From a bacterium HR35 (lineage in GTDB: Bacteria; Patescibacteriota; Minisyncoccia; UBA6257; HR35), in assembly GCA_002898235.1 (NCBI GenBank), contig BEIL01000002.1:51264-115263 (forward strand): a DNA stretch of 64,000 bases, in the 5' to 3' direction. The notes under the pieces were generated by a model. That model saw only the letters and a program-made list of their open reading frames with translations. It ran no database searches and was not told the origin of the DNA. Positions 7,945-35,086 of this stretch are shown here, one piece after another (the first letter of the stretch is position 1; each line of letters starts with the position of its first letter). The position numbers and the translations under genes are program-made.

Positions 7945-10900
7945 ATGAGACAAAAACAAAAAATTTCTTTTATTAAAAGGTTTTTTACCAAAGAAAATGT
8001 TCATCCCTACGACGAAGTAAATTGGATAAAAACTACAGCTGAAATTCCTGGTTCTGGTTTTAGAATGGAAGATGTAGAATTTCCTGATTTTTACAGCCAA
8101 AATGCAATTAATATCATTGCTTCTAAATATTTCAAAGTAAATAAAGGCAAACAAGAAAAAAGCTTAAAAGAACTTATTGATCGGGTTGTCAAAACCTCTA
8201 AAAAATGGGGATTAGAACAAGGATATTTTGATGAAAAAGAGGCAGAAATTTTTGAAGCAGAATTAACTTATATTTTACTTCATCAATATGCTGCTTTTAA
8301 TTCTCCTGTTTGGTTTAATTTTGGAGTTGAAGGAAGACCTCAAACTGGTGCTGCATGTTTTATCTTAGATGTTGAAGATAGTATGGAGTCAATTTTGGAT
8401 TGGATTAAAACCGAAGGAATGATTTTTAAAGGAGGTTCTGGTTCAGGAGTTAATTTATCAAAACTAAGAGCAAAAGGAGAACCACTTTCAACTGGTGGAG
8501 TTTCTTCAGGGGTTATTTCTTTTATGAAAGCAGCCGATGCTGTTGCTGGAAGTATAAAATCTGGAGGCACGACGAGGAGAGCGGCAAAAATGGTTGTTTT
8601 GAATGCTGACCATCCTGAAATTATGGATTATATTCGAGTTAAAGCTGAAGAAGAAAATAAAGTTAGAGCTTTGATGGAAGCAGGTTATGATATGACTGAT
8701 TTAAACAATCCTTTGTGGCAAAATATTTTCTTTCAAAATGCAAATAATTCAGTAAGAATTCCTGATGCTTTAATGGAGGCAGCAATGAAAGATGGTGAAT
8801 GGAAAACTTATTATCGCACCTCAGGTAAAGTAGCCCAAGTTTATAAAGCTAAAGATATTTTATGGGAAATTGCTAAAGCTGCTTGGGAATGTGGTGATCC
8901 AGGAGTTCAATTCGATGACACTATCCAAAAATGGCATACTTGTAAAAATTCAGGAAGAATTGAAGCAACTAATCCATGTGTTCCAGGTGATACCTTAATT
9001 GCAACAAATGAAGGTTGGAAAAGAATAAAAGATTTAGTTGGCAAAAATCCAATTATTATTACTCAGAAAATAGAAACGCGGACTACATACGGACTATACA
9101 CGGACTATACACGGACAGAACACAGACAACACACGGACAAAAAGGACAAAATAAATATGTCCGATAAATCTATGTCTAGTCCAAAAAAATCCATTAATAA
9201 GTCCGAACAGTCCGTGTTAAGTCCGATAGAGTCTGTTGAAAATCAGGTTGTTGAGAAAAGAGCTTTAAGAGTTTTTAAAACAGGAATCAAGCCAGTTTAT
9301 AAAATAATAACTCGTTCTGGTTATGAATTAAGAGCAACAGAGGACCACCCAATTTATATTGAAGGCAAAGGAGATGTTAAAGTTAAAGACCTTAAACCAG
9401 GAGATAAAGTAAGATTAATCGGTGCCGGCTTTGGTAATAAATCTTTAGATTCAGATATTGCTTTTATGATTGGTTATTTTGCTGGCGATGGAGCTATAAG
9501 TTATGATTACAACCATCAAAGATTTAGTATTTTCTTTACTGGAGGCAATGAAGATATTTATGCTTTAAATTACATCAAAAGCACAATAAATGAAAAACTT
9601 CAATCTAAACACAAAGCTCAAACTAATTTAAGAAGATTAATCTCAGAGTTTGTTGTTGCTACAAGTAGAGAAAATGTTGCTGAAATTTTAAATCAATATT
9701 TTGATTTTCAAAGAAAAATATTTAAAGATTCAGTTTTCGATTTAGACAAAGAATCAATCAAAAATATTCTTAAGGGATTATTTACTGCTGATGGAACAAT
9801 TACTGGTAATCCTCAAAAAGGATTTTATGTTGGTTTAGATAGTTCTTCTTTAGAGCTTTTAAAACAAGTACAGCTTTTGCTTTTAAATTTTGGCATTAAG
9901 TCAAAAATTTATAAAAATAGAAGAAGCAAATTAGAACAATACTTACCTGATTCTCAAAGAAAATTAAAACTTTATCAGGTAAAACAACAACATAGTTTAA
10001 GAATAACAAGAAGTTCAAGAGTAATTTTTGAAAAAGAAATTGGTTTTTATGAATTGCATCAAAAGCAAGAAAAATTAGAAAATATTAATCAAAAATATGA
10101 AGCTTATAAAGACCATCTTTATGATGAAATTAAAGAAATAGTTTTTGATGGCATTGAAGAAGTTTATGATTTAACTGAGCCAGAAACATCTCATTTTGTT
10201 GCTAATGGTATTTTAGTTCACAATTGTGCTGAATATATATTTCTTAACTGGACAAGCTGCAATCTTAGTTCAATTAATCTCTTAAAGTTTCTTAAAGATG
10301 ATAGTAAATTTGATGTTCCTGCATTTCTTCATACTGTTAGAGTAATGTTTTTAGCTCAAGATATTATGGTTTCTAAAGCTGATTATCCTCATCCAAAAAT
10401 TGCTGAAGAAACTAAAAAATACCGAACAATCGGCTTGGGTTATACAAATTTAGGTGCTTTGATTATGGCATTAGGCCTTCCTTATGATTCTGATGAAGCT
10501 CGAGATTTAGCTGCCAGCATTACAGCTTTAATGACAGGCGAAGCTTACAAACTTTCAACTGAAATTTCAGCCAAACTTGGTCCATTTCCTGAATATGAAA
10601 AAAATAAAGAACCAATGCTTGAAGTAATGGAGCTTCATCGTAAAGCATTAAAAAATGTTAATGAAAATGATTTTAATAAAGAGATTTTAAATAAAGCTAA
10701 AGAAGTATGGGATGAAGTAATTGAGCAAGGTAAAAAATATGGTTTTCGTAATGCTCAAGCAACAGTTATCGCGCCTACTGGGACAATAAGTTTTATGATG
10801 GATGCTGATACTACTGGAGTTGAACCTGATTTTGCTTTAGTTAAAATGAAACAACTTGTCGGCGGTGGTTATATGAAAATTGTAAATAAAACAGTTCCTC

Positions 10901-11841
10901 TTGCTTTAAGAAGGCTTGGTTATAGCGAAAAGGAAATCGAAGATATTGTTAAACACTTAGAAGAAACCCAAAATATTGAAACAGCTCCGCATCTTAAACC
11001 AGAACATTTACCTGTTTTTGATTGTGCTATTAAACCACCTGGAGGAAAAAGATATATTCATTGGTTAGGACATGTAAAGATGGTTGCTGCTATTCAACCC
11101 TTCATAAGTGGTGGAATTTCAAAAACCTTCAATATGCCTAATGAAACAACAATTCAAGAAATTTATGATGCTTACTTTACTGCTTGGAAATTAGGAATTA
11201 AATGTTTTTCTGTTTATCGTGATGGTTCAAAAGCAACTCAAGCTTTATATACTGAAAAGAAGGAAAAGAAACCTCAAGAAAAACTTGGTAGAAGAAGGTT
11301 ACCTGATATTAGGCCATCTGAAACTCATAAATTCTCAGTTGGTGGTCATGAGGGTTATCTAACTTATAGCACTTTTGAAGATGGCAGTCTTGGAGAAATC
11401 TTCATCCGAATGGCAAAGCAGGGCAGTACTTTAGCAGGCCTTTTAGATGCTTTTGCAATTGCAGTTTCAATTGCTCTTCAATATGGAGTGCCCTTAAAAG
11501 AACTTGCTAGTAAATTCATTAATATGAGATTTGAACCATTGGGCTTAACTAATAATGAAAAAATAAAAACAGCTACCTCAATAGTGGATTACATATTTAA
11601 ATATTTAGCTTACCGTTTTCTTTCTAAAGATGAATTAGAAGAATTGGGTCTTTTGACTGAAGTTGATAAAGAAAAACTAGTTTTAAAAGAACATCCAACG
11701 CTATTTGAAATAAAAAATAATCCAAACAATAATTTAGCTGAAATTTCAGGCCCCCCATGTGTTCATTGTGGAGGAATAACAATTAAAACTGGTGCTTGTT
11801 ATACTTGTATAAGTTGCGGAGAAACTACAAGTTGTGGCTAA
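7945..11841 (+). CDS. nrdJ: adenosylcobalamin-dependent (class II) ribonucleotide reductase NrdJ, interrupted by an in-frame intein
   Basis: Extein junction TNP|C..HN|CAEYIFLNWTSCNLSSINL restores the RNR active-site motif NPCAE...CNL; C-terminal CxxC..CxxC zinc ribbon; extein length about 882 aa. Confidence 0.75.
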   Translation: MRQKQKISFIKRFFTKENVHPYDEVNWIKTTAEIPGSGFRMEDVEFPDFYSQNAINIIASKYFKVNKGKQEKSLKELIDRVVKTSKKWGLEQGYFDEKEAEIFEAELTYILLHQYAAFNSPVWFNFGVEGRPQTGAACFILDVEDSMESILDWIKTEGMIFKGGSGSGVNLSKLRAKGEPLSTGGVSSGVISFMKAADAVAGSIKSGGTTRRAAKMVVLNADHPEIMDYIRVKAEEENKVRALMEAGYDMTDLNNPLWQNIFFQNANNSVRIPDALMEAAMKDGEWKTYYRTSGKVAQVYKAKDILWEIAKAAWECGDPGVQFDDTIQKWHTCKNSGRIEATNPCVPGDTLIATNEGWKRIKDLVGKNPIIITQKIETRTTYGLYTDYTRTEHRQHTDKKDKINMSDKSMSSPKKSINKSEQSVLSPIESVENQVVEKRALRVFKTGIKPVYKIITRSGYELRATEDHPIYIEGKGDVKVKDLKPGDKVRLIGAGFGNKSLDSDIAFMIGYFAGDGAISYDYNHQRFSIFFTGGNEDIYALNYIKSTINEKLQSKHKAQTNLRRLISEFVVATSRENVAEILNQYFDFQRKIFKDSVFDLDKESIKNILKGLFTADGTITGNPQKGFYVGLDSSSLELLKQVQLLLLNFGIKSKIYKNRRSKLEQYLPDSQRKLKLYQVKQQHSLRITRSSRVIFEKEIGFYELHQKQEKLENINQKYEAYKDHLYDEIKEIVFDGIEEVYDLTEPETSHFVANGILVHNCAEYIFLNWTSCNLSSINLLKFLKDDSKFDVPAFLHTVRVMFLAQDIMVSKADYPHPKIAEETKKYRTIGLGYTNLGALIMALGLPYDSDEARDLAASITALMTGEAYKLSTEISAKLGPFPEYEKNKEPMLEVMELHRKALKNVNENDFNKEILNKAKEVWDEVIEQGKKYGFRNAQATVIAPTGTISFMMDADTTGVEPDFALVKMKQLVGGGYMKIVNKTVPLALRRLGYSEKEIEDIVKHLEETQNIETAPHLKPEHLPVFDCAIKPPGGKRYIHWLGHVKMVAAIQPFISGGISKTFNMPNETTIQEIYDAYFTAWKLGIKCFSVYRDGSKATQALYTEKKEKKPQEKLGRRRLPDIRPSETHKFSVGGHEGYLTYSTFEDGSLGEIFIRMAKQGSTLAGLLDAFAIAVSIALQYGVPLKELASKFINMRFEPLGLTNNEKIKTATSIVDYIFKYLAYRFLSKDELEELGLLTEVDKEKLVLKEHPTLFEIKNNPNNNLAEISGPPCVHCGGITIKTGACYTCISCGETTSCG
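8977..10224 (+). mobile_element. intein (416 aa) with LAGLIDADG homing-endonuclease domain inserted at the RNR catalytic Cys
   Basis: Block A CVPGDTLIATNEG, block B ATEDHPIYIEG, two LAGLIDADG motifs (IGYFAGDGAIS, LKGLFTADGTITG), block F/G ...SHFVANGILVHN followed by the +1 Cys. Confidence 0.85.
9078..9236. repeat. imperfect palindromic array of ~11-nt repeats (cggac units on the left, gtccg units on the right) lying in-frame inside the intein
   Basis: tacacggacta repeated in tandem about 6 times, then mirror-image gtccg-containing units; local centre ggacaaaataaatatgtcc near 9142-9160; GC-richer than surroundings. Confidence 0.6.
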
Positions 11842-11873: not shown

Positions 11874-13054
11874 ATGCCAAAAAGTAATGAACCCGTTAGA
11901 TTTGATGATTTTGAGAAACGTCTTAGAGAGAAAGAAAAGGAACATTTAGATTTAATCCATCTTCTTAATGATTTGAATTGGTTAAAAAACTCTTAGCTCT
12001 TTTTGAAGTTTTGTTTATTCATATAAAATCTAATTTGGATAAAATCAAAATTAGCGAAGACGACTATTTATTAAATTTAGAAAACTTTGAGAATTTAGTA
12101 GCACCTAATGTAGGAGAAGAAAATATCGGTATGATTTTAAATATTCTTAGAGAAAAAGGGGGACTACCGGCAAATATTAATGAAATAAAATGGAAAGAAT
12201 TTTTAGAATATCTCGAAAAAGCTTTTGAAAATTTATTTAATTCTATTAAAGGATTTTATGCCGACGAAGAATTAAAAAATAAAGTATTAGAAACTCTTAA
12301 CGAACTTATGTCTCAAATTGATTTATATTTAGAATGTCTCCCCGAACTTTTGCCATTTGATCAGATTTTAATTAAAGATCATTCATCTCCAATTATCAGA
12401 AATATTAGAGAAAAATATAGAGAATTTTTAAAAAGGATTAAGAAAGAAGCAGAAGATATTAAAGATATGTTTGAAGATGAGGTTTTTGGGTATTTGAGAG
12501 AAAGAATAGATGAATTTCAGGAAAGAATAAATACCAAAGTTAAATCTGGTTTTAATAATTCATTAGAAGATATAGATAAAATTATTAAACTTTCTGAAAG
12601 GCTAATAGATAACATCAAATCAAACCCTGAAATAATAGAAAAATTTATTAATGTTTTTTATAGTAGAATATGCGTCATCTATTTCGAATTATTCTATTAT
12701 AGAATTCAAGTTGGTAATATTACTAGAGATCTATCTAAGTTATCTAGAGAAGTTGATACTAGAAGATTAAAAAAGAAAGAGAAAGCCCAAAATTTATTTG
12801 ATAGTTTGAAAAAAAGTTTTGAAATAGTTTTAAAAAAAATAGAGGAAATCAAAAAGAAAATTAATTCCTTAATTTCTGAAATCAATCGGTTAGAAAATTT
12901 ATCAGTAGAAGTTCCTAAATATGAAAAAAGTCTAAAAGAATTTTTATTAAAAAATTTTGAAGATTTAATAAAATCATTAGATAATGTTCTAGATGAAATT
13001 CAAAATTTATTTAAAGTGATAGAATCAATAAAAGAGAGTATATCTTCAAAATAA
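11874..13054 (+). CDS. hypothetical all-alpha/coiled-coil protein; apparent frameshift at an A6 run (11984-11989) splits a 40-aa ATG-initiated N-terminal piece from the 358-aa track ORF (11978-13054, TTG start)
   Basis: Adding one A joins ...LNDLNWLKK to LLALFEV...; the upstream ORF has a proper ATG and no other reason to exist. Confidence 0.4.
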
Positions 13055-13099
13055 GAAATAAAAAATGAAATTTGAAAAATTCGGGAAATTTTTAAAACA

Positions 13100-13597
13100 A
13101 TGAAAAGAAGCCCAGAAAGAAGAAAAAATATAAGAAGACAAATTGAACAAAGAACAAATATACCAGAAGATTATAAAGTGATAATTGAGCAAATTGAAAA
13201 ATTAATTAAAGATTTAAAAGAGTCAGTTGAAAGTTTATTAATAACCTGCCAAACACTAGTTGAAAGTTTACAATATCTTATAGGTCTGCTTAATAGAATC
13301 ATCACTCGTCAAGCCCGTGAGGGAAATATAATATACAAAGGAGGAAGTTTAAATCCAGAAATATTTCGAGATGACTTAGAAGGAGGAGAAAATTTAGAAA
13401 GCTATTTGAATGAAGTTTTTGGAATAGAAGGAGGCAGAAATATTACTTTAGAAGATATAAAAAAGCGAATTGAGGAATTATTAGGGATAGAGGAAAAAGT
13501 AGATGAAATTATAAAATTAATAAATGAATTAGAAGAAAAGAAACAATATTTTCAAAGTTTAGATAAACCACAAAAAAGCCACTGCAACCAAGATTAA
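13100..13597 (+). CDS. hypothetical protein (165 aa, K/E-rich)
   Basis: ORF only; no recognisable motif. Confidence 0.35.
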   Translation: MKRSPERRKNIRRQIEQRTNIPEDYKVIIEQIEKLIKDLKESVESLLITCQTLVESLQYLIGLLNRIITRQAREGNIIYKGGSLNPEIFRDDLEGGENLESYLNEVFGIEGGRNITLEDIKKRIEELLGIEEKVDEIIKLINELEEKKQYFQSLDKPQKSHCNQD

Positions 13598-13602
13598 ATG
13601 TA

Positions 13603-13905
13603 GTGCAAAGAGAAATAAATAGAATCAAATCTGATAGAGAATTATTACAATTACCTCGGACTTTTAGAGACCTTGAATCAAAAATAAAGTCTTCTAAGTT
13701 AAAGCCAACATTTGATAATTTTTCTAAGCTAGTGTCAGGATTAAATAATCATCCAAATCTTTCGTCTTACAGAGATTTTTTTGTTCAGCTTGAAGGAGAA
13801 ATAAGAGGATGGTTAGAAAACATAAGAGGATTTATAGAAAATATCTCTCGTAAAATTAATGATTTAATTCAAAATTTAGAAGAAAACTCATCTAATCTCT
13901 TTTAG
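13603..13905 (+). CDS. hypothetical protein (100 aa)
   Basis: ORF 5 nt after the previous one, likely co-transcribed. Confidence 0.35.
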   Translation: MQREINRIKSDRELLQLPRTFRDLESKIKSSKLKPTFDNFSKLVSGLNNHPNLSSYRDFFVQLEGEIRGWLENIRGFIENISRKINDLIQNLEENSSNLF

Positions 13906-13934
13906 TAATTTAATTCCTTTAATCTTTCTAATTC

Positions 13935-14342
13935 TTAATGTAATCGTTCTAGAAGCTTCTTTTTTAAGGTAGATAAAGCTTCTTCAAATTCCTCCTGACC
14001 AGGAAGTTGTGCTGGCTTATTTTCAAATTGTCCTAATTTTTCTAGAAATCCATTTCTTCCTCTATTAAGTGTTTCTTCAGAAAAATAGGCAGATAATATT
14101 GCTTTTGTTTGTTCGTCTAGGGAGCCTGCAATTTCATTAAAAATTGTATTAAAGTCTTTTATAGGCATTTCGCCCATCATGCCAAAGGCGGAAAGGTAAC
14201 CTTGCTTTCTTATCCCATCCATAACAGTATCAATAAAAGCAATTAATTGTTTTTTTACTTTTTCTAATTCTTCATCTAATTTTTTTTGTTCTACTCGACC
14301 CCCTTCTTCTCGTTTTAAAAACTTTGTCATCTTTTCGTTCAA
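13935..14342 (-). CDS. hypothetical protein (135 aa)
   Basis: ORF directly downstream of the recombinase gene on the minus strand. Confidence 0.35.
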   Translation of the reverse strand: MNEKMTKFLKREEGGRVEQKKLDEELEKVKKQLIAFIDTVMDGIRKQGYLSAFGMMGEMPIKDFNTIFNEIAGSLDEQTKAILSAYFSEETLNRGRNGFLEKLGQFENKPAQLPGQEEFEEALSTLKKKLLERLH

Positions 14343-14374
14343 TTATTAATTATCGCCCCTTATGTTTAAAATAA

Positions 14375-15271
14375 TTATAAAATATTTTTCCTCCTTTTGC
14401 CATGGAAGGCGCGGTGAATTTCTTTAAGTTCTTTATTGGTTAAATGAGTATAAATTTGGGTTGTTTGTAAATTTTTATGGCCTAATAATAGTTGAATAGC
14501 TCTTAAATCAGCTCCAGCCATCAATAAATCAGTTGCAAATTGATGCCTTAGGGTATGAGGAGTTATTTTTTTTAAGATTCCTGATTTTTTTGCATAATAC
14601 TTAATTATTTTTTGAACTCCCCGAGGAGTTATTCTAGTAAATTTTTTGTTTTTGCTTAAATTAATAAAAAGAGCTGGATTATTATCAGTTCTTTTCTCTA
14701 AATATTTTTTTAAATAAAGTTTAGCTAAGGGTGATAAAAAAACAATTCTTATTTTTCCGCCTTTTCCTTTGACTGGTATTTCTCCCTTTTTTAAATCAAT
14801 ATCTCTGTTTAAACTACAAATTTCAGAAACCCTAAGTCCAGTACTAAATAAAGTTTCTAATAAAGCTCGGTCTCTTAAAGATTTTAAATCTTCACCTTCA
14901 GCTGATTTTAAAAATCTATCTAATTCTTCATCGGTTAGAATATTAATTTCTCTTTCAGGAATTTTAGGTAATTCAATTTTTTCTGGATCAAGAACTTCAT
15001 AGCCTTTTTTCTTTAAAAATCTTAAAAAACTTCTTAAAGTAATTAAATAATAACTTTGGGTTTTGATTGAGATGTTTTTTTTGTCAAGATAAAAACGGAA
15101 TTTAAAAATACTTTCTTCATCTAAAGAAGTAAAATTGTTAGTTTTTAACCAGTCAATAATTTTTTTTAATCGTGAAAGATAAACCTTAATTGTTCCTTGG
15201 CTTTTATTTTTTTCCAATCTTAAATAGGCTTCGAAACGAGGTAAAAACGACTCTATTTGTTTTAAATCCAT
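14375..15271 (-). CDS. tyrosine site-specific recombinase (XerC/XerD family)
   Basis: C-terminal catalytic region HTLRHQFATDLLMAGADLRAIQLLLGHKNLQTTQIYTHL (R, H-x-x-R, Y); N-terminal SAM-like core-binding domain. Confidence 0.8.
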   Translation of the reverse strand: MDLKQIESFLPRFEAYLRLEKNKSQGTIKVYLSRLKKIIDWLKTNNFTSLDEESIFKFRFYLDKKNISIKTQSYYLITLRSFLRFLKKKGYEVLDPEKIELPKIPEREINILTDEELDRFLKSAEGEDLKSLRDRALLETLFSTGLRVSEICSLNRDIDLKKGEIPVKGKGGKIRIVFLSPLAKLYLKKYLEKRTDNNPALFINLSKNKKFTRITPRGVQKIIKYYAKKSGILKKITPHTLRHQFATDLLMAGADLRAIQLLLGHKNLQTTQIYTHLTNKELKEIHRAFHGKRRKNIL

Positions 15272-15295
15272 TTTATGTTAAAATAATTATAAACT

Positions 15296-15559
15296 ATGCC
15301 AATTACAAAAGAAAAAATTAGAGAAATTATTAAAAAATATGGGAAGAATGAAAATGATTCCGGTTCTCCTGAAGTTCAAATTGCTTTATTGACAGAAGAA
15401 ATCCTAAATTTAGCTGAACATTTGAAAAAACATAAAAAAGATAAAAATTCTAAGAGAGGATTGATTTTAAAAATTGCTCATCGAAAAAAACTTCTAAAAT
15501 ATTTACAAAAAGTTTCTTTTGAAAGATATAAGAAAATTACTAAAGAATTAGGATTATGA
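15296..15559 (+). CDS. rpsO: 30S ribosomal protein S15
   Basis: 87 aa, ...[25 protein letters not shown].. typical S15. Confidence 0.9.
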
Positions 15560-16062
15560 ACTTTTTCGCTACTCCAGATCAAAGGGTTAATATTTTTATC
15601 GATACTCAAAATATCTATCATTCAGCTAAAAATCTTTATAATAAAAAGGTTGATTTTGGTAAATTAGTTTCTCTTTTAGTTGGACCAAGAAAACTAATTA
15701 AAGCTTTTGCTTATGTGATTAAATCAGATTTTACTCCTAAAGAAATTGATTTTTTTGAAGCTTTAATTAATCAAGGAATCCAACTGAGAATTAAGGAACT
15801 CCAAGTTTATCCTGATGGTAGCAAGAAGGCTGATTGGGATGTCGGTATAGCTGTTGATGTTATTCGCTTTAGTCAGTTGGTTGATGTTGTTATTTTAGTT
15901 ACTGGCGATGGTGATTTTTCTCATCTTGTTGAATATTTACAAAATCAAGGTAAACAAGTTGAAATTGCTGGTTTTTCTCAGACAACTTCAGTAAAATTAA
16001 AAGAATTAGCTGATTTTTATTATGACCTTAATGAATTGAGAAATATAATCTTAATATCATGA
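15556..16062 (+). CDS. NYN-domain (LabA-like, PIN-fold) protein
   Basis: [12 protein letters not shown]...[28 protein letters not shown]; ATGA overlaps with rpsO upstream and pnp downstream. Confidence 0.75.
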
Positions 16063-18125
16063 AAAAGAATTTTGTTTATCAAAGTCCGAAATATAATTAT
16101 GAAATTGAATTTGAAATTAATGATTGGGCAGAAAGATCTTTTTTATCTTTATTGACTAAATTTAAAGATACAAGAATTTTGACTATTTTAAATTTCGGTT
16201 CAGAAATTCCTGATTTAGAATTTTTACCCTTAACAGTTGATTATGAAGAAAAATTTTATGCTGTTGGTAAAATTTATGGCAGTCGATTTATTAGGCGTGA
16301 AGGAAAACCGTCAATTAACGCTATTTTAAATGCAAGACTTATTGATAGAGCCATTCGCCCTCTTTTTCCTCCTATTTTTAGAAAACAACTCCATTTAGTT
16401 AATATTGTCTTATCTTATGATTTTAGTTTAGATCCTGGAGTTTTGGCTCTTTTAGGCTCTTCTTTAGCCCTTCATTTAGCTGGTATCCCCCTTATTTCAC
16501 CAATCGGTGCTATTAAAGTCATTTATAAAGATGGTGAATTTTTCTTTAATCAAAATTTAGATGATTTTCAAATGGAACTTCTTTTTTCAGCAACTTCAAA
16601 TAAAGTTAATATGATTGAACTCGAGGGTAAGGAAATAAAAGAAGAAATAGTTTTAGAAGGATTGAAATTGGGTTTTGAGGAAATTAAAAATTTTGTTAGT
16701 TTTGTAAAATCAATCGAACCCCTATTTAAAGACCAAATTAAAATCGAAGAAGATTTATTTAATCAAGGAGAAGCAGCTTTAAATAAGTTTTTAGAAGAAA
16801 ATAAATTTGATTTAGAAAAGAAACTTTTTAGTTTTGAAGAAGGGGATAGGCCATGGCAAGAAGTTTTTGAATTAGTTAATCAAGAAGAAAAATTTGGTGA
16901 GCTTAAACCTTATGTAATTAATGCTTTAAATAGGAGATTTAAAAAAATATTTCAAGAAAAAATTTTAAAAGATGGAATTAGGCCAGATGGCAGAAAGCTG
17001 GATGAAATTAGATCTTTGAAAATGGAAATTGGAATTTTGCCTCGAGTTCATGGTTCGGCTTTATTTATGAGAGGTTTAACTCATATTCTTTCAACTGTCA
17101 CTTTAGCTGCTCCTGGAGAAGAACTTTGGTTAAGAGATATTGAATATGAAGGTTTTAAAAGATTTATTCATCATTATAATTTTCCTCCTTTTTCTACCGG
17201 CGAATTAGGTAGCTCTAAAGGACCTTCAAGAAGAGAGATCGGTCATGGTGAATTAGCTGAAAAGGCTTTAAGAAATTTAATTCCTCCTCAAGAAGAATTT
17301 CCTTATACTATTAGAGTTGTTTCTGAGGTTTTATCTTCAAATGGTTCAACTTCAATGGGTTCTGTTTGTGGCTCTTCTTTGGCTTTAATGGATGCCGGTG
17401 TGCCCCTTAAAAAACATATAGCCGGAATTAGTATCGGTATGGTTTATCAAGATGATGACAATTATAAACTTTTGACTGATATTCAAGGACCAGAAGATTT
17501 TTTTGGAGCTATGGATTTTAAAGTAGCTGGAACCGATCTAGGAATTACTGCTATTCAACTTGATGTTAAAATTGAGGGTTTAACTTTAAAACAAATAGAA
17601 GAAACTTTTGAAAAGGCTAAACAAGCCAGAATTTTTCTTTTAGAAAAAATGTCATCTTTGATTGAAAAACCAAAATCTTTAAGCATTTATGCTCCTCAAA
17701 TAGAAGTTTTGAAAATTGATCCTTTAAAAATAGGTTTAGTTATAGGAACAGGTGGTAGAACAATTAATGAAATTATTGCAGCTACTAATGTTAAGATTGA
17801 TATTCATCCCGATGGCCTTCTTTATATTATTGGCGATAAAAATTCTAATTTTGAATTAGCTAAGAATTGGATTAAAAGTATTGCTGAAGCTTTTAATGTT
17901 GGAGATTTAGTTAAAGGAAAGGTTACTAAAATTTTGCCTTTTGGAGCAATTTTAGAATTAGCACCCAATAGAACAGCTTTGCTTCATATTTCCGAAATAA
18001 CTAACAAAAAAATAGAAAACATTGAAGAAGAAATAAAGATAGGCGATGAACTTTTAGTGATGATAAAGAATATTAGCGAAGACGGAAAAATTTATGTTTC
18101 TTTAAAAGATGTCCGAGGAAAGTAA
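16059..18125 (+). CDS. pnp: polynucleotide phosphorylase
   Basis: Two RNase-PH domains, KH and C-terminal S1 (GDLVKGKVTKILPFGAILEL); 688 aa. Confidence 0.9.
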   Translation: MKKNFVYQSPKYNYEIEFEINDWAERSFLSLLTKFKDTRILTILNFGSEIPDLEFLPLTVDYEEKFYAVGKIYGSRFIRREGKPSINAILNARLIDRAIRPLFPPIFRKQLHLVNIVLSYDFSLDPGVLALLGSSLALHLAGIPLISPIGAIKVIYKDGEFFFNQNLDDFQMELLFSATSNKVNMIELEGKEIKEEIVLEGLKLGFEEIKNFVSFVKSIEPLFKDQIKIEEDLFNQGEAALNKFLEENKFDLEKKLFSFEEGDRPWQEVFELVNQEEKFGELKPYVINALNRRFKKIFQEKILKDGIRPDGRKLDEIRSLKMEIGILPRVHGSALFMRGLTHILSTVTLAAPGEELWLRDIEYEGFKRFIHHYNFPPFSTGELGSSKGPSRREIGHGELAEKALRNLIPPQEEFPYTIRVVSEVLSSNGSTSMGSVCGSSLALMDAGVPLKKHIAGISIGMVYQDDDNYKLLTDIQGPEDFFGAMDFKVAGTDLGITAIQLDVKIEGLTLKQIEETFEKAKQARIFLLEKMSSLIEKPKSLSIYAPQIEVLKIDPLKIGLVIGTGGRTINEIIAATNVKIDIHPDGLLYIIGDKNSNFELAKNWIKSIAEAFNVGDLVKGKVTKILPFGAILELAPNRTALLHISEITNKKIENIEEEIKIGDELLVMIKNISEDGKIYVSLKDVRGK

Positions 18126-19341
18126 AAAAGAAGAATTCAAATATACTTTTATTGGACCAGGTTCTTTAATAGGCAAAGAGGAAGACGAAAAAAAAGAAAT
18201 GACTGAATTTAAATCTGTTTCCTTTTCTAAAGAGGAAATACCAATAAATGAACAAGTTATTGCTTCCTCTCCTCCTTTAGAGGAAAAAACTGAAATTAAA
18301 GAAGGCAAATTAACTCTTCAAACGCCTCCAGAAAGAATAGAAGAATTGAAATTAGAAGAAGAGAAAAAAGAAAGTTTTCAACCACCAAATTTAAGCGAAA
18401 TTACTTTTAAAAGAGAAGAGAGGTTTACTCGTCCACGAAAAGAACTTTTAGAAGAAGCAGCAGCTAATTTACCAGAAGAAAAATCTCGTAAAATTGATTT
18501 TTCTAGGTATCTACTTTACCTAATTCCTGCTCTTGTCTTTTTCGTTTTAATTTTTCTTATTATTTATTTCAAGCCTTATCAAGAAATTGTTAAACTATTT
18601 CAAACTAAAAAAGAACCAACTCCTCCGCCTCCAGAAGAACCAATAATCTTACCTAAAGCTGAAGAAAAACAATCAGAAACTAGCACTGAAGAAAAAAGAG
18701 TTGAAACAATTTCTTTGCCTATTGAAAAGCAAAAAACTGAAAATCAAATTTTAAATCAACCACTAACTCCTTCCCAACCAACTTCTCAAATAAAATTATT
18801 TCCCTTTCTTCCTCAATATCAAATTAAATTAACTAACCCAACAGAAGGAGAAATTCAAAAAGCTTTAGAAGAATTTAATTCTCGTTATCAACTTCCAAAT
18901 AACTTCTTAGTTTTAAATTTAAATTACCAAAATCAAAAACTTCCTATTGATTTACTTCTAAATTATTTTTTCAAAGATAAAAACTTCCAGGAAAAAATAA
19001 AACCCAATCTTTCAACCAATTATGAAATTTTAGTTTACCAATCTCTATCTCGTAAATATTTAGTTTTAGTTTTTGAAATAAATAATTTTCAAGAAATAGA
19101 AAAATTAAATTTAGCTTGGGAAAAAACTTTTTCTTTAGAAAAAATAAAGAATTTTTATTTTGATTTTAAACCGACGAAAGTTTTGTCTAAAAACTTTATT
19201 TCTGAAAGTTATGATAAGATTAAATATAGGGTGATTTTTTTAGACAATAATAATGTTTTCGCTTGGTTTATTTTTAAAAATTATTTAGTTTATTTGACTT
19301 CAGAAAAAACAATTCCTCAATTAAATAATCTTCTTAGATGA
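18109..19341 (+). CDS. hypothetical single-pass membrane-anchored protein
   Basis: E/K-rich N-terminus, one TM (YLLYLIPALVFFVLIFLIIYF), Pro-rich linker. Confidence 0.4.
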   Translation: MSEESKKEEFKYTFIGPGSLIGKEEDEKKEMTEFKSVSFSKEEIPINEQVIASSPPLEEKTEIKEGKLTLQTPPERIEELKLEEEKKESFQPPNLSEITFKREERFTRPRKELLEEAAANLPEEKSRKIDFSRYLLYLIPALVFFVLIFLIIYFKPYQEIVKLFQTKKEPTPPPPEEPIILPKAEEKQSETSTEEKRVETISLPIEKQKTENQILNQPLTPSQPTSQIKLFPFLPQYQIKLTNPTEGEIQKALEEFNSRYQLPNNFLVLNLNYQNQKLPIDLLLNYFFKDKNFQEKIKPNLSTNYEILVYQSLSRKYLVLVFEINNFQEIEKLNLAWEKTFSLEKIKNFYFDFKPTKVLSKNFISESYDKIKYRVIFLDNNNVFAWFIFKNYLVYLTSEKTIPQLNNLLR

Positions 19342-19670
19342 AGGATTTAGAAACATTTAAAGCAAAATTAATTAAAGAAAGAGAAGAGATAGCTTTTCTT
19401 TTAGAAACTTTAAACAAAGAAGAGACCGATGTTCTTAGGGAAGAAGCCTACGAAACTAGTGATTGGGCTAATAAATATGAATTAAGAGAAGAATTTCATT
19501 TACAAAAAGAAGATTTAGAGAAGAGACTGGAATTAATAGATAAAGCTTTAAAGAAAATCGAAAATAACTCTTATGGTTTTTGTGAAAATTGCGGCAAGGA
19601 AATTGAAGAAGCTCGATTAGAAATTGATCCAGCTGCTCCTTATTGTCGAAACTGCGCTTCTAAATTTTAA
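19338..19670 (+). CDS. DksA/TraR-family C4 zinc-finger protein
   Basis: CENCGKEIEEARLEIDPAAPYCRNC preceded by a coiled-coil region. Confidence 0.6.
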   Translation: MKDLETFKAKLIKEREEIAFLLETLNKEETDVLREEAYETSDWANKYELREEFHLQKEDLEKRLELIDKALKKIENNSYGFCENCGKEIEEARLEIDPAAPYCRNCASKF

Positions 19671-20119
19671 CTTAAAAAAATTTGAATTTCTTTACTTGGG
19701 TTTGAGATTTCTTTAAGGTTTTTAAAAATAAGAGAGTTCTGGAGATTATTTTTTTCTACTTCTATTTCAAAGAAAAGATAAAGCTCCCCATCCTTTAATT
19801 TTGATTTCAATAAATTTCTTATTTTCGAAATTAAAACCTTATTTTTTTCCCAAACTCTTTTTCTTAAAGCCTCAAATAAGCCCTCACCTTTTTTCCAAAG
19901 ACCGCCACAAAATTCATATTGCCCATTATTTTGCCACACTAAATATTTATCATCCAATTTTTTAGTTCCATAGATAAAAACTTTTTTAGGCCCAAATTTT
20001 AAAAAATGTTTAAGAATAAACTCATCCTTTTTAACTTTCATTTTTATAAAAAAGAGAATAAAGACCGCTTTTAATATTATTTTATCATAAAACTGAGCTT
20101 TCTCTTGGATAAACTTCAA
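19667..20119 (-). CDS. hypothetical protein, weak NUDIX-box-like segment
   Basis: GGLWKKGEGLFEALRKRVWEKNKV loosely fits Gx5Ex7REVxEExGV. Confidence 0.3.
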   Translation of the reverse strand: MKFIQEKAQFYDKIILKAVFILFFIKMKVKKDEFILKHFLKFGPKKVFIYGTKKLDDKYLVWQNNGQYEFCGGLWKKGEGLFEALRKRVWEKNKVLISKIRNLLKSKLKDGELYLFFEIEVEKNNLQNSLIFKNLKEISNPSKEIQIFLS

Positions 20120-21125
20120 TTTCTTCCGGTTTTTTAATTAATACTTTTGTTTTGAAAAGTAAATAACCACCAATAGCAATATTAAGACCATTATCAGTTG
20201 ATAATTCTCTTTGGGGGAAAATTATTTTTTTATTCTTTAAAACTTTTTTAGTCAATTTTCTTAAAGTTTGATTAGCGGCCACTCCGCCAGTAATAACAAT
20301 TGTTTTTGGTTTGTAAATTTCTTCGGCTTTTTTTAATTTATAAAGTAAGATTTCAAAAATTGTTTTTTGTAAAGAAGCCGAGAGATTATTAATGTCTTTT
20401 TCCTCTAAATCGCCTTTAATTTTTTTGATTTCGTTAATTGTTTCAATAAAAGCAGTTTTTAAACCAGAAAAACTAAAATTAAATCCTTTTTCTAAAAGGG
20501 GCTTGGGTAGAGCATAGAAATTTTTTGCTAATTTAGCTCTTCTTTCGATAATTGGACCACCAGGATAACCTAAACCTAAAGCTCTAGCTCCTTTATCCAA
20601 TGTTTCACCAGCAGCATCATCAATTGTTTGCCCAATTCTTTTATAATTTATCCAATCTTTAAATAGATAAAGATTAGTATGACCACCAGAAACTATTAAA
20701 ACCAAAGCAGGGAATTCAATTTTTTTAATAGTTTGCCAAACATTAAGTCTATTTTTTATAACCACTGAAGCAAAATGAGCAAAAAGATGATTAACAGGAA
20801 TAATATTTTTATTTAGTTTCTTAGCTAAAGAAGCAACAAATTCTTTACCGCTAACTAGAGCGGGTAAAAGTCCTGGTCCAACTGAAAAAGATAAATAGTC
20901 AATTTTTTTTAAATCAAAAAATTTTTTAACTCTTTCAAGTAAAATAGGCAAATTTTTTCTATGTTCCCGAGCAGCTAAAATTGGAACCACTCCACCATAA
21001 GGAGAATGGATTTTTATTTGGCTTCTTAGCTCATTAGCTAAAATTTTAATTTTATTTTCTTGAGCTTCAATTAAAGCAATGCCGCTTTCATCACAAGTTG
21101 ATTCAATGCCTAAAATGTAAACCAT
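20085..21125 (-). CDS. tsaD: tRNA N6-adenosine threonylcarbamoyltransferase TsaD (Kae1/YgjD)
   Basis: MVYILGIESTCDESGIALIE..., HxxAH region (HLFAHFA), ASKH/actin-like fold. Confidence 0.85.
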   Translation of the reverse strand: MVYILGIESTCDESGIALIEAQENKIKILANELRSQIKIHSPYGGVVPILAAREHRKNLPILLERVKKFFDLKKIDYLSFSVGPGLLPALVSGKEFVASLAKKLNKNIIPVNHLFAHFASVVIKNRLNVWQTIKKIEFPALVLIVSGGHTNLYLFKDWINYKRIGQTIDDAAGETLDKGARALGLGYPGGPIIERRAKLAKNFYALPKPLLEKGFNFSFSGLKTAFIETINEIKKIKGDLEEKDINNLSASLQKTIFEILLYKLKKAEEIYKPKTIVITGGVAANQTLRKLTKKVLKNKKIIFPQRELSTDNGLNIAIGGYLLFKTKVLIKKPEEIEVYPRESSVL

Positions 21126-32113: not shown

Positions 32114-35086
32114 ATGGAATCATTAATTAACAATATAGAACAAAAAATCCTAGAATTTTGGAAAAAAGAAAATATATTTAAGAAATCATTAGCGCAAAAT
32201 AGAAAAGGAAATTTTTTTAGCTTTTTTGATGGCCCTCCCTTTGCCACTGGTTTGCCTCACTACGGTCACATTTTAGCATCTACGCTTAAAGATTTGTATT
32301 GCAGATATGCTTCTATGAAAGGTTATTATGTACCAAGAAGATGGGGGTGGGACTGTCACGGACTACCAATTGAAAACTTAGTAGAGCAAGAAATGGAGGT
32401 TAAAACCAAAAAAGATATCGAGAAAATTGGGATAGAAAAATTTAACGCTATTTGTAAATCTAAGGTTTTAAAATTTGCTAGTGAATGGGAAGATATGGTA
32501 GATAGAATAGGGAGATGGATAGAATTTAAAAATGCTTATAAAACTATGGATACTTCTTATATGGAGTCTGTTTGGTGGGCATTTAAGCAATTTTGGAATA
32601 AGGGATTAATTTATGAAGGAATAAAACCTCTTTTATACTGTCCTAGGTGCCAAACTCCGGTTTCTAAATTTGAAATTATAATGGACAAAAATTATAAAGA
32701 AATAGAAGTAGATTCCATCGTTGTCAAATTCCCGCTTGTTAAAGAAAAAACTCAATTACTAAAAAAGCAAAATTTATCAAAACCGGTTTATCTTTTAGTA
32801 TGGACTACCACTCCTTGGACTTTACCGAGTAATGTGGCTATAGGAATAAGGAAAGATTTGGATTATTTATTGGTAGAAAATGATGAGGGTTTTTTTATAA
32901 TTCATAAACAAGCTTTAAAATTATTTGATAGACGTCCGAGATTAATAAAAGTTATAAAAGGTAAGGAATTAATAGGGAGTAAATATCTATTATTGTTTTC
33001 TAGAAAAGATCATGAAACGGGATTGATTATAGAAGATCCTTACATTACAGAAGAGGGAACTGGGTTAGTTCATTTAGCCCCCGCGTATGGAGAAGAAGAT
33101 TTTCATCTATGCAGAAAACACAGATTACCTATAATCACCACATTGAATGAAGGGGGTATTTTTGAATTTAATTGTCCAGATTTTCTAAAAGGAGCATATT
33201 TTGAAAAGGCGAATGAAATTATTATTAATTTTCTTTCTTCTAATAATATGCTCTTTAAAGTAATAAAATTTAAACACAGATATCCTTTTTGTTGGAGATG
33301 TGGAACAGCTTTATACTATAATGCAGTTACTTCTTGGTTTATAGATATTAAAAAAATAAAAAAAATGCTAGTGGAGCTTAATAAAACAATAGATTGGCAC
33401 CCAGCCCATCTTAAATATGGTAGATTTCTTAAGGGTTTGCAAAGTGCGCCTGATTGGAATATTTCCCGATGGAGATTCTGGGCTACACCGATCCCTTTAT
33501 GGAGATGTCAAAATATTAATTGTAGAAATATAGTCTGTATCGGAAGTATAAAAGAACTTCGTAATAAAGCAATTAATTTTGATAAAGTCTATCCTGATTA
33601 TCATAAGAATATAATCGATTTACATAGGCCTTATATAGATATGGTTTTATTGAGATGCGAAAAATGTAAAGATATTATGGTAAGAGTAAAAGATGTTCTT
33701 GATTGTTGGTTTGAATCAGCTAGTATGCCGTTTGCTGAAATTCATTATCCATTTGAGAATAAAAAATTTTTTGAAAAGAGATATCCGGCCGATTTCGTAG
33801 CTGAATATATAGCCCAAACAAGGGCGTGGTTTTATGTTATGCTTGTAGTAAACGGTGTTTTATTTCATCAAGCTCCGTTTAAACATGTATTAACGACAGG
33901 CACTGTACTTAACGAAAAAGGAGAAAAGCTTTCCAAATCTAGAAAGAATTTTCCAGACCCATGGCATATTATTCACAAATACGGAGCAGATGCTCTAAGG
34001 TTCTATCTTTTATCGTCTCCTGTAATTGAAGCTAGAGATTTGTTTTTTTCAGAAGAAGGAGTAAAAAATGTTTATAGAAAAATAGTTAATATTCTCTTGA
34101 ATCTAGTAGCTCTATACAAATTTTATGAAATGGGCGCTTTGGCTAAAAAATTAAATATAGAAAAATTTAACTTTAAAACTGGTATTAAAGATACTCTTCA
34201 TAAATGGATTTTATCTTATATTTACTATAAAAAGAATCTAATTAAAGATGCTCTTGATAATTATGAAACTAAAAAGGCTTGTAAAGAGATAGAAAATTGT
34301 ATTAATATGATTTCTCTATGGTATGTTAAGTTTATAAAGGATTTAATTAAAATTAAAGATCAAGAGAGTATTGTGGTATACAGTTGGATTCTTTATCAGT
34401 TATCTAAAATAATAGCTCCGTTTATGCCATTTATGGGGGAATATTTATATCAATCATTGAATTTTGTGACAAAAAAATCTGTTCACTTAGAAAAATTGGA
34501 AGATATTAATTATTTAGTAAATAAAAAACTTATTGACGATATGGAGAAGGTAAAAAAAATAATACAATTAGGCTTATCAGCAAAAAAACCAGTGGTATAA
34601 AATTAAAATATCCTGTAAGCCAAATTATAATCAATATTAAATTAAAGCCTAGCTTAATTTCTTTAATTAAAAAAATATTAAATGTTGAGAAGGTTATAGT
34701 AGATCCAAATGCTGAATACGAAAATTACAAAGAAGATTATATAAAAGCAGAAGATGGTAATGTTAAAATTTTTATTAAAAAAACCGCTGATTTTAATTTA
34801 ATTATAAAAGGAATTTTAAGAGAATTTACAAGATATATAAATTCAATTAGAAAAAAACTACAACTTACGCCAAAAGACAAAATAATTACAGAAATTTTTA
34901 TTTATGATGAGACGTTATTTAAAAATTTAACTGAAACTAGTTTAAGTGAACTAAAGACTAATACATATTCTGAAGACCTTAAAATAACAAAAATTGAAAA
35001 AGAAATATATGAACCGAATGTTTTAGAGTTTAAAGTAGGCCCCAATAAAGAATTTAAAGTTAAAATTAAAATCACTAAAATATGAA
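32114..35086 (+). CDS. ileS: isoleucyl-tRNA synthetase, eukaryote-like type 2; reading frame broken at an A7 run (34582-34588). Track ORF is 32114-34600; the C-terminal ~160 aa continue to 35086 in another frame
   Basis: GPPFATGLPHYGHIL (HIGH), KLSKS, CP1 editing domain; adding one A gives ...LSAKKTSGIKLKYPVSQ... matching the IleRS ..GIKVRQPL.. region. Confidence 0.8.

Follow-up and report, generated by a model that had tools for sequence, protein, structure and literature searches.

Few operons under post-transcriptional regulation have been studied as thoroughly as rpsO-pnp, and PNPase holds a central place in RNA decay. In the genome of bacterium HR35, a member of the Patescibacteria (CPR), a radiation that accounts for much of bacterial diversity, rpsO and pnp are separated by a third gene. 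Within the window, by which we mean the whole stretch of 64,000 nucleotides that was analysed, rpsO, a gene for a NYN-domain protein and pnp follow one another on the plus strand, with an ATGA overlap at each junction. The features of the locus are:

14375..15271, minus strand: XerC/D-like tyrosine recombinase (PF00589, E 3e-41), divergent, 24 nt from rpsO.
15296..15559, plus strand: rpsO, 30S ribosomal protein S15, 87 aa, which opens the unit (PF00312, E 2.8e-32).
15556..15559, plus strand: ATGA overlap of the rpsO stop (TGA) and the NYN start (ATG), read from the sequence.
15556..16062, plus strand: single-domain LabA/VPA0982-type NYN (PIN-like) protein, predicted metal-dependent endoribonuclease, 168 aa (PF01936, E 1.9e-30).
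16059..16062, plus strand: ATGA overlap of the NYN stop and the pnp start, read from the sequence.
16059..18125, plus strand: pnp, polynucleotide phosphorylase, 688 aa, with two RNase PH domains, KH and S1 (Pfam domains).
18109..19341, plus strand: fast-evolving ORF, 410 aa, without significant family match, overlapping the end of pnp by 17 nt.
19338..19670, plus strand: DksA/TraR-type C4 zinc-finger protein, 110 aa (PF01258, E 9.7e-13), ATGA-overlapped with the 410-aa ORF.

Pfam and NCBIfam matches above cut-off bear out the identities (S15, NYN and PNPase) that an earlier note had assigned to the three genes. S15 scores 108.7 bits against TIGR00952 (cut-off 63.65), PNPase scores 730 bits against NF008805 (cut-off 471) and 723 bits against TIGR03591, and the NYN protein scores 106.7 bits against PF01936 (gathering 24.2), its residues 10-158 covering positions 1-144 of the 145-position model. 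The 410-aa ORF, for which Pfam gave only a sub-threshold OAD_gamma match across a hydrophobic stretch, probably belongs to the same transcription unit; relatives carry a gene of ~330-480 aa at this position, even where pnp is missing from the locus. A scan for promoters and terminators over 14300-20200 returned no more sites than in shuffled sequence, the sole Rfam match in the window was one tRNA, and rnc and other RNases were not found among the scanned ORFs of the window.

The overlaps at 15556 and 16059 lie exactly where the earlier note had placed them. Misassembly at the junctions, which it had named as a danger, is ruled out by two further assemblies: the junction region of a Logan assembly (L088) matches the window base for base, and L087, an ENA assembly of a different sample, differs in its DNA but keeps all three genes and both 4-nt overlaps. 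An AGGA lies 2 nt 5' of the NYN ATG, a distance too short for a canonical Shine-Dalgarno sequence, which favours termination-reinitiation at NYN; 5' of the pnp ATG we found no Shine-Dalgarno-like motif. Neither junction of the window is structured (z 0.30 and 0.91), the stretch 15930-16110 around the NYN-pnp junction folding no better than its shuffles (z 0.30). Since HR35 lacks a NYN-pnp spacer, a pnp leader has nowhere to lie, and the mere 24 nt between rpsO and its divergent neighbour are likewise too few for a long S15 autoregulatory leader. The ATGA overlaps in themselves are ordinary for this genome: the window holds 53 pairs of neighbouring genes on the same strand, of which 10 have a 4-nt overlap and 33 are spaced by 10 nt or less. 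The part beyond chance is the gene order kept across genomes.

Among 80 NYN-anchored loci of CPR genomes, the gene immediately upstream of NYN encodes S15 in 76 of the 77 that could be evaluated, and pnp follows NYN in 67 of 76. The converse sample, drawn from metagenomes, was anchored on PNPase and therefore chosen without selection on NYN; here the order S15-NYN-PNP was found at 61 of 68 evaluable loci. The arrangement is thus not confined to this contig, as the earlier note had allowed that it might be; it prevails in most of the CPR lineages sampled, where a strongly conserved, predicted NYN nuclease is built into rpsO-pnp. It is retained among lineages whose PNPases are only ~40-45% identical. 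At two loci (L147 and L126), S15 stands immediately beside pnp. The NYN protein is more conserved than PNPase at 57 of 57 loci and than S15 at 48 of 57, a comparison biased by the choice of these loci for NYN similarity, and the CPR NYN proteins fall into very few clusters at 50% identity. Judged from these sequences, they form a CPR/Patescibacteria-specific orthologous clade under strong constraint. In the published CPR-wide tables the family was present in 1840 genomes, against 2009 for S15 and 2008 for PNPase, and was flagged as CPR-enriched (Méheust 2019, PMC6744442, Supplementary Data 1). The family has therefore been tabulated before, as CPR-enriched and of unknown function, and its operon context is undescribed in the literature we found: a search for the NYN domain together with rpsO/PNPase or with CPR/Patescibacteria/Saccharibacteria did not return the association. 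The sole paper matching 'NYN domain' and PNPase jointly concerns plant mitochondria, and an apparent match of 'LabA' with Patescibacteria (PMC9132574) was discarded, the matching word being the author name Labadie.

The synteny extends to a wider block (xerC-like, then rpsO-NYN-pnp-X-dksA) whose members are functionally unrelated. A XerC/D-like gene lies upstream at 35 of the 80 NYN-anchored loci, nearly always on the opposite strand, and a DksA/TraR-type gene lies downstream on the same strand at ~31 of them; both are also found at many PNPase-anchored loci. Tight coupling, by overlap or a gap of 10 nt or less, recurs in many lineages at both junctions: in two samples, S15 and NYN overlap or are spaced by no more than 10 nt in 30 of 67 and 37 of 62 relatives, and the NYN-pnp gap is 10 nt or less in 23 of 67 and 26 of 66. 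The median gap is 18 and 3.5 nt between S15 and NYN, against 73 and 60.5 nt between NYN and pnp. Moreover, the S15-NYN pair is kept at 9 loci from which pnp has gone, and at some loci unrelated ORFs are inserted between NYN and pnp. S15-NYN is, then, the tighter and more persistent pair. The layout makes it likely that S15, NYN and PNPase are co-expressed, presumably from a common transcript.

By sequence and structure prediction, the NYN protein adopts a PIN-like alpha/beta/alpha fold of the 2qip/VPA0982 and MARF1 type. It matches PDB 2qip by profile (E 2e-35), and its AF2 model (pLDDT 93.2, pTM 0.88) matches 2qip (E 3e-16, TM 0.87/0.90) and the MARF1 NYN domain (E 1e-6) in Foldseek. Residues D16, D95 and D118, together with D101 and D120, are invariant across 21 relatives; the first three align to D14, D92 and D115 of VPA0982 and to D358, D426 and D452 of MARF1, and the catalytic Asp residues of the NYN protein of B. 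fragilis correspond to those of HR35 as well. The PIN-like acidic residues, whose degeneration would have spoken against the earlier note, are thus conserved, in a confidently predicted fold. MARF1 and the CRISPR-associated NYN of B. fragilis are Mn/Mg-dependent, sequence-non-specific endonucleases of single-stranded RNA that require the first of these Asp residues (bioRxiv 10.1101/2024.04.08.588522), and the HR35 protein, equivalent to both in fold (Foldseek E 1e-6 to 6fdl and 5yaa) and catalytic Asp, appears to be a catalytically intact endoribonuclease. It differs from MARF1, to which it is ~14% identical, in lacking RRM and LOTUS domains, and from the B. fragilis protein, which is encoded in a type III CRISPR locus, in being a bare domain in a housekeeping operon.

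Its nearest counterpart of known structure, VPA0982 of Vibrio parahaemolyticus (2qip; NYN.COG1432, PF01936), shares the family, the fold and the Asp triad at 34% identity, and both are single-domain proteins of ~165 aa. VPA0982 is a structural-genomics protein without assigned function, and its NYN.COG1432 group is listed as 'function unknown' (PMC5499597); no member of this LabA-like group is described inside rpsO-pnp, and the CPR clade branches separately and is far more conserved. Against TIGR00288, an NCBIfam hypothetical equivalog, the HR35 protein reaches 30.6 bits (cut-off 178.45), over residues 67-159 only. A Pfam scan at E <= 0.01 gave PF01936 as its sole domain, with no match to PF05991 (NYN_YacP) or to the VapC-type PIN toxins of PF01850, and neither the PRORP nor the HARP architecture (PPR plus NYN; PIN_5-type HARP) is present; nor does the protein bear a scaffold or extension. 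One metagenomic ORF (P0200), which joins an N-terminal part of NYN to PNPase residues ~50-95, was considered as a Rosetta-stone fusion and rejected as a chimera or deletion, because it is a single ORF and lacks the ends of both domains.

These data also bear on whether NYN might have a role outside housekeeping, be it as a LabA-like regulator without catalysis, a toxin of the VapC kind, or a nuclease of defence or CRISPR systems. In Synechococcus, LabA acts genetically as a clock-output regulator (PMC5499597), and PADLOC NYN models do match the HR35 protein (E 1e-13). The PADLOC match, however, is confined to the shared domain (positions 149-298 of a 310-position model), every catalytic Asp is invariant, the adjacent genes encode S15 and PNPase rather than a small antitoxin, no cas or defence genes lie nearby among what are core housekeeping genes, and toxin or defence genes are not typically so close to universal, so highly conserved and so confined to one locus. 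We therefore regard any such role as very improbable.

The flanking genes, their order and their strand are as in the E. coli-type rpsO-pnp operon, but the adjacency of rpsO and pnp is not, the 168-aa gene lying between them. The E. coli-type pnp hairpin has a counterpart in many CPR relatives, whereas in the HR35 window the leader is gone, so that leader control of the E. coli type cannot work in this lineage. Where relatives do have a NYN-pnp spacer, it is almost always a long stable hairpin before pnp: in two independent samples the median folding z was -4.7 and -6.0, with 72% and 96% of spacers below -3, and compensatory changes were seen in 13 of 22 pairs. Rfam returned nothing in the spacers of 14 relatives. 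Many CPR thus retain a hairpin leader and others, including HR35, have overlapping stop and start codons instead, a contrast in which the evolution of pnp regulation in streamlined genomes can be followed as a natural experiment.

The earlier note had suggested that NYN might stand in for RNase III-dependent leader control. As an operon-specific regulator it would cut the rpsO-pnp mRNA in place of RNase III-dependent pnp autoregulation, which would suit a window without a pnp leader and without significant junction structure. For the RNase inventory we relied on published CPR-wide counts, our own scan having covered ORFs of the window. These counts place RNase III in 2068 CPR genomes, against S15 in 2009, and show RNases III, Y and J to be near-universal (Méheust 2019, PMC6744442, Supplementary Data 1). 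NYN-bearing relatives, furthermore, keep the long covarying hairpin before pnp, so NYN and a structured pnp leader occur side by side, the one not displacing the other. NYN also stays where pnp has left the locus, and its sequence conservation is far above what would be expected of a single-target regulator. On these comparative data the proposal is largely refuted, and we give it very little credence.

Some relatives are found outside the operon. In Southlakia epibionticum, a cultured Saccharibacterium, the genes for S15 (SEML1_0025), NYN (SEML1_0084) and PNPase (SEML1_0093) are dispersed; NYN tolerates transposon insertions and is non-essential at all three time points, and pnp shows a growth defect (PMC10633639, Tables S1/S2). 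A genetic system already exists for Saccharibacteria. The nearest non-CPR relatives of NYN belong to DPANN archaea, which have S15 and lack PNPase; at four Woesearchaeota loci the neighbours of the gene include neither S15 nor exosome or RNase genes, and none of them is shared between loci. An HMM sorting of 150 representatives into 'CPR' and 'DPANN' was used qualitatively only, because for distant members the more diverse profile wins by default and makes the class unreliable. Many relatives at 44-57% identity bear long K/R-rich tails. We considered these tails as degradosome-like scaffolds of CPR and dropped the idea, because the named matches that bear them are DPANN archaea.

That relatives in Saccharibacteria and DPANN function in other contexts would fit a gene order that is a frozen accident, in which a useful NYN nuclease was inserted behind the strong rpsO promoter and kept by streamlining; its substrates would then have no specific relation to S15 or PNPase. 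The same reading would explain why the wider block is syntenic despite the unrelated functions of its members, why unrelated ORFs may separate NYN from pnp, and why the overlaps and short gaps are no more than the norm of the genome. However, the order outlasts the divergence of PNPase although CPR genomes rearrange freely elsewhere, the tight junctions arise again in many separate lineages, and RNA is the common target of all three products. An accident of this kind therefore seems to us rather unlikely.

A serious rival to a partnership with PNPase is a role tied to S15 and the small subunit: trimming of pre-16S rRNA, removal of rRNA insertions, 30S quality control, or action as a ribosome-associated nuclease. 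We consider it possible, with considerable doubt. The S15-NYN junction is the most constant and the tightest, with many overlaps, the pair survives the loss of pnp from the locus, and the closest relatives, in DPANN archaea, have S15 and no PNPase. Precedents exist in Nob1, a PIN-domain nuclease of archaea and eukaryotes, and, for a ribosome-linked role, in Rae1/YacP of Bacillus, a NYN-family nuclease. Rae1/YacP of Bacillus subtilis is likewise a small bacterial endoribonuclease of the NYN superfamily, though of a different Pfam family (PF05991); its gene neighbourhood holds translation and RNA-processing genes, in an operon makeup that differs from rpsO-NYN-pnp. The 30S maturation factors RimM and RimP, moreover, are largely missing from CPR, and RbfA is absent from about half of them (main text of PMC6744442), which makes a non-standard 30S maturation plausible. 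On the other hand, the DPANN gene has no ribosomal neighbours, the Southlakia gene is distant from rpsO and dispensable, the window and the loci show no rRNA-related feature tied to NYN, and a place behind rpsO may merely mean the use of a strong promoter.

The reading that we favour, tentatively and at somewhat less than even confidence, is that NYN is active as an endoribonuclease with a housekeeping task, is expressed along with S15 and PNPase, and probably supplies PNPase with 3' ends. We know of no bacterial LabA-type NYN.COG1432 protein with an established housekeeping substrate, and the CPR clade is a concrete candidate with clear partners in PNPase, S15 and 30S subunits. Early in CPR evolution, the NYN gene may have taken up a lasting place in the operon, immediately after rpsO and ahead of the pnp leader; one transcript, that of rpsO, would then serve NYN as well as S15 and PNPase. 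Compaction in the lineage of HR35 would later have reduced the two spacers to ATGA overlaps, so that termination-reinitiation is the probable mode of translation for all three proteins. NYN would cut single-stranded RNA internally, leaving 3'-OH ends, from which PNPase, a 3'-to-5' phosphorolytic exonuclease, would digest; mRNA fragments and/or rRNA precursors could be the substrates of such an endo-exo pair. It would work beside RNases III, Y and J and not in their place; as CPR already have these enzymes, no gap in their toolkit demands another.

The cooperation that we infer has parallels in the RNase E-PNPase and RNase Y/J-PNPase degradosome pairs, in which an endonuclease and PNPase are expressed together and the same division of labour is proposed. 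HR35 NYN differs from these endonucleases in having no scaffold region and in a fold unrelated to those of RNases E, Y and J. Of the earlier note's obligatory co-expression with PNPase, the likely co-expression stands, whereas 'obligatory' is weakened by the S15-NYN pairs that outlast pnp and by the dispersed genes and non-essential NYN of Southlakia. As counterpoints to a PNPase partner we note, too, that the NYN gene is more tightly linked to rpsO, persisting with it at the 9 loci without pnp, that the Southlakia gene lies away from pnp and is dispensable, and that the DPANN relatives occur without PNPase and without a conserved neighbour.

A broader proposal, which we think unlikely, unites the CPR NYN proteins and their DPANN sister clade as an unrecognised core RNA-maturation endonuclease of ultra-small prokaryotes. 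It can take two forms. In one, NYN would make cuts in 16S/30S maturation or quality control that PNPase trims, compensating for the missing RimM, RimP and RbfA-type machinery; in the other, NYN and PNPase would form a physical, CPR-specific endo-exo machine.

The three genes of interest are all on the forward strand of the window:

15296-15559, + strand: rpsO, encoding S15 (PF00312, E 2.8e-32; TIGR00952 above cut-off)
15556-16062, + strand: the NYN gene, 168 aa (PF01936 matched from end to end at 106.7 bits; gathering score 24.2)
16059-18125, + strand: pnp, encoding full-length PNPase (NF008805, 730 bits against 471; two RNase PH domains, KH and S1)

These positions coincide exactly with those given in an earlier note, made from the sequence alone, as do the two ATGA motifs (15556-15559 and 16059-16062) in which a stop and a start codon overlap. 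Misassembly at the junctions, a concern of that note, was ruled out: the junction region of a Logan assembly is identical to the window and an ENA assembly whose DNA differs from it shows these three genes overlapping in the same way, so the junctions are genuine and not an assembly artefact. The database protein HRbin35_00337 of 'bacterium HR35' is identical to the window NYN protein, whose closest relatives are named Parcubacteria or Patescibacteria. By themselves the ATGA overlaps are unremarkable in the window (28.8% G+C), where, among 53 pairs of neighbouring genes on one strand, 10 share 4 nt and 33 are spaced by 10 nt or less. Only 24 nt (15272-15295) separate the start of rpsO from that of a divergent xerC-like gene. 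This interval has no Shine-Dalgarno motif before rpsO and contains an extended -10-like TGTTAAAAT (15276-15284), ending 11 nt before the rpsO ATG; a promoter scan of 14300-20200 returned no sites beyond chance. The rpsO leader may be very short or absent, with no space for an S15 autoregulatory 5′ UTR.

An AlphaFold2 model of the NYN protein, built on 21 relatives, was confident (pLDDT 93.2, pTM 0.88), and its best structural matches were VPA0982 (2qip; E 3e-16, TM 0.87), also the sole PDB match at sequence level (E 2e-35), and the NYN domains of human and mouse MARF1 (E ~1e-6). Five aspartates, D16, D95, D101, D118 and D120, do not vary among the aligned sequences. The fold and the catalytic aspartates, which the earlier note had proposed to check, both bear out its assignment. 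D16, D95 and D118 correspond to D14, D92 and D115 of VPA0982, to D358, D426 and D452 of MARF1, and to D13, D118 and D143 of the Bacteroides fragilis NYN protein, a Mn2+-dependent, sequence-non-specific endonuclease of single-stranded RNA whose activity is abolished by D13A (bioRxiv 10.1101/2024.04.08.588522). These fold matches and equivalent residues make it very likely that the window protein works as a nuclease; no accessory RNA-binding domain accompanies its NYN domain. Profile searches did not place it in the NYN_YacP or VapC-type PIN families, nor in TIGR00288 (30.6 bits against 178), and PADLOC matches were limited to the shared domain. A non-catalytic protein, or one with a toxin or defence role, is scarcely credible.

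A scan of one genome per species returned at least 586 relatives of the NYN protein, of which we used the best 80 (49-84% identity). All of these come from CPR/Patescibacteria metagenome-assembled genomes (MAGs), with Magasanikbacteria, Microgenomatus, Jorgensen-, Wolfe-, Colwell-, Staskawicz-, Taylor-, Zambryski-, Nomura- and Nealsonbacteria among the lineages in record titles. In 76 of the 77 loci with sufficient flank the gene immediately preceding NYN, in the same orientation, was S15, and in 67 of 76 PNPase followed on that strand. Beyond the three genes, the syntenic block extends to a divergent XerC-like recombinase ahead of rpsO and, after pnp, to a fast-evolving ORF and then a zinc-finger gene of the DksA/TraR type. 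Nine loci lacked pnp within the flank, and in seven of them (L030, L037, L038, L042, L046, L056, L069; the others are L025 and L035) the order S15-NYN-ORF-DksA was otherwise intact, indicating that pnp departed and S15-NYN remained. L025 has neither S15 nor pnp near NYN, and one or two additional ORFs separate NYN from pnp in L029, L065, L067, L076 and L009. In several relatives a tRNA gene immediately precedes rpsO on the same strand (among them L021:4595-4668, L061:4556-4627 and L073:4401-4471) and may be co-transcribed with the operon.

Since this sample had been chosen on NYN, we also collected 80 metagenome loci solely by similarity to CPR PNPase and counted the 68 with at least 900 nt upstream. 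The order S15-NYN-PNP was found in 61; two more had NYN-PNP with S15 lost to the contig end, two had NYN ~3.7 kb upstream of pnp with intervening inserted genes, two had neither S15 nor NYN, and one (L147, 3613-6097) had S15 upstream of pnp with no NYN between. S15 also directly adjoins pnp in L126 (8-2391), a locus too short to be counted; L147 and L126 represent either bacteria outside CPR or CPR lineages that lack the insertion. The arrangement is therefore not peculiar to this contig, a possibility the earlier note had left standing, but recurs across related genomes as a genuine, strongly conserved, lineage-specific three-gene variant of the rpsO-pnp operon.

Enrichment of the family in CPR is already known: Méheust et al. 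2019 (Supplementary Data 1) list it as fam00139, median 177 aa, 'unknown' and CPR-enriched, in 1840 CPR, 264 other bacterial, 29 DPANN and 7 other archaeal genomes (PMC6744442). In a survey of the PIN superfamily NYN.COG1432 is entered as 'function unknown', with no reference to S15 or PNPase (PMC5499597), and we found no searchable literature linking 'NYN domain' with rpsO or with CPR terms. The conserved operon position thus appears to be undescribed so far, and is a useful, apparently unreported clue to NYN function. The position is not universal within CPR. In the Saccharibacterium Southlakia epibionticum the NYN gene SEML1_0084, of a core, Patescibacteria-enriched family (Tables S1, S2), is surrounded by cell-envelope genes, at a large distance from S15 (SEML1_0025) and ~5 kb away from PNPase (SEML1_0093); in Tn-seq it was non-essential at all three time points, while PNPase went from non-essential through growth-defective to essential (PMC10633639). 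Dispensability in one cultured CPR bacterium lowers expectations of the protein. That the gene order is a frozen accident, with no specific link behind it, is unlikely. L009, L012, L026, L036, L049, L057 and many 'binchicken' loci, one of them a complete 0.93-Mb chromosome, are titled 'uncultured Gammaproteobacteria' or 'Candidatus Saccharibacteria' and carry the CPR-type xerC, rpsO-NYN-pnp synteny. Southlakia, a cultured Saccharibacterium, does not have the arrangement, and these taxonomic labels look unreliable.

Both junctions were measured in the two samples. The median S15-NYN gap was 18 nt in the NYN-anchored and 3.5 nt in the PNPase-anchored sample (10 nt or less in 30/67 and 37/62), and the median NYN-pnp gap 73 and 60.5 nt (10 nt or less in 23/67 and 26/66). 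Folding z (stability relative to shuffled sequences) of 40-300 nt spacers had medians of -4.7 (72% below -3) and -6.0 (96% below -3) for NYN-pnp, and -1.65 and -3.8 for S15-NYN; the NYN-pnp spacers are the more structured (Mann-Whitney p 0.001, PNPase-anchored sample). Where NYN and pnp do not overlap, CPR relatives have a very stable long hairpin directly upstream of pnp (L019:5585-5650, L040:4362-4435, L066:5556-5620, L054:5540-5610, L057:5640-5712, L024:3815-3885; also L080, L073, L061, L021). Six ABY1/Magasanikbacteria-like loci have in common a hairpin of ~22 bp, in which 13 of 22 pairs are altered on both sides in at least one sequence with pairing kept. The spacers of 14 relatives matched no Rfam family, and a U-tract follows some of the hairpins, which may represent a leader of pnp, an attenuator or a site for RNase III that has so far escaped annotation. 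In many lineages NYN is thus flanked by rpsO on one side and a structured pnp leader on the other; no spacer is left in the HR35 lineage and several others, and folding of both window junctions revealed no compensating structure.

The earlier note had suggested that NYN might replace RNase III-dependent leader control of pnp. This is unsupported, because RNase III is ubiquitous in CPR (2068 genomes, beside 2009 with S15, 2008 with PNPase, 2025 with RNase J, 1977 with RNase Y and 2 with RNase E/G; PMC6744442), NYN is found alongside hairpin leaders, and it has been retained at loci that pnp has left; such an autoregulator is very improbable. The comparative data support a functional, co-expressed predicted nuclease; the co-expression with PNPase that the earlier note proposed is likely. 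An obligatory partnership with PNPase is weakened, since the constant partner is rpsO and the contexts in Saccharibacteria and DPANN differ. Tentatively, we favour a housekeeping endonuclease of single-stranded RNA that would generate 3′ ends for PNPase to work on as RNA is turned over and processed. A rival and less probable reading centres its role on the 30S subunit or 16S rRNA; in its favour, RimM and RimP are mostly missing from CPR genomes, and RbfA is present in under half (PMC6744442).

When 1.84 billion representatives clustered at 50% identity were searched with the NYN protein, the CPR-type clade comprised very few clusters, which points to strong sequence constraint. Similarity to the window protein was higher for NYN than for PNPase in 57/57 and than for S15 in 48/57 loci with all three genes well covered, figures inflated by selection of the loci on NYN. 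The nearest non-CPR relatives (44-57% identity) are from DPANN archaea named Woesearchaeota, Nanoarchaeota or Nanobdellota, and a rough neighbour-joining tree, without support values, places the CPR and DPANN clades as sisters. One NYN subfamily is thus common to two groups of ultra-small episymbionts, across domains. In four archaeal contexts NYN had no shared neighbour and no ribosomal or RNase gene around it, making the S15-NYN-pnp linkage a CPR feature; the DPANN loci (L081-L086) have no conserved gene neighbourhood. Many DPANN proteins (P0193, P0167, P0274, P0388 and others) end in a long, K/R/P/S-rich low-complexity C-terminal tail, rich in K/R, of up to ~250 aa. P0201, P0206 and P0232 (~470-560 aa) combine a long, coiled-coil-rich N-terminal region without a Pfam domain with a C-terminal NYN that shares ~40% identity with the window protein. 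P0200 (194 aa), one metagenomic ORF in which the first ~128 NYN residues run into PNPase residues ~50-95, looks more like a deletion or an assembly chimera spanning the NYN-pnp junction than a true fusion.

Elsewhere in the window, four consecutive ORFs without a Pfam match (358, 165, 100 and 135 aa; 11978-14342), E/K/L/I-rich and coiled-coil-like, closely precede the xerC-like gene. Two ORFs in different frames (35082-35771 and 35789-36196) together make up a DegT/DnrJ/EryC1-type aminotransferase (profile positions 7-198 and 221-359 of 360), a frameshift that marks a pseudogene or else comes from a sequencing error. The 1298-aa product of 7945-11841 is a class II (B12-dependent) ribonucleotide reductase into which an intein carrying a LAGLIDADG homing-endonuclease domain is inserted (PF14890, PF14528).
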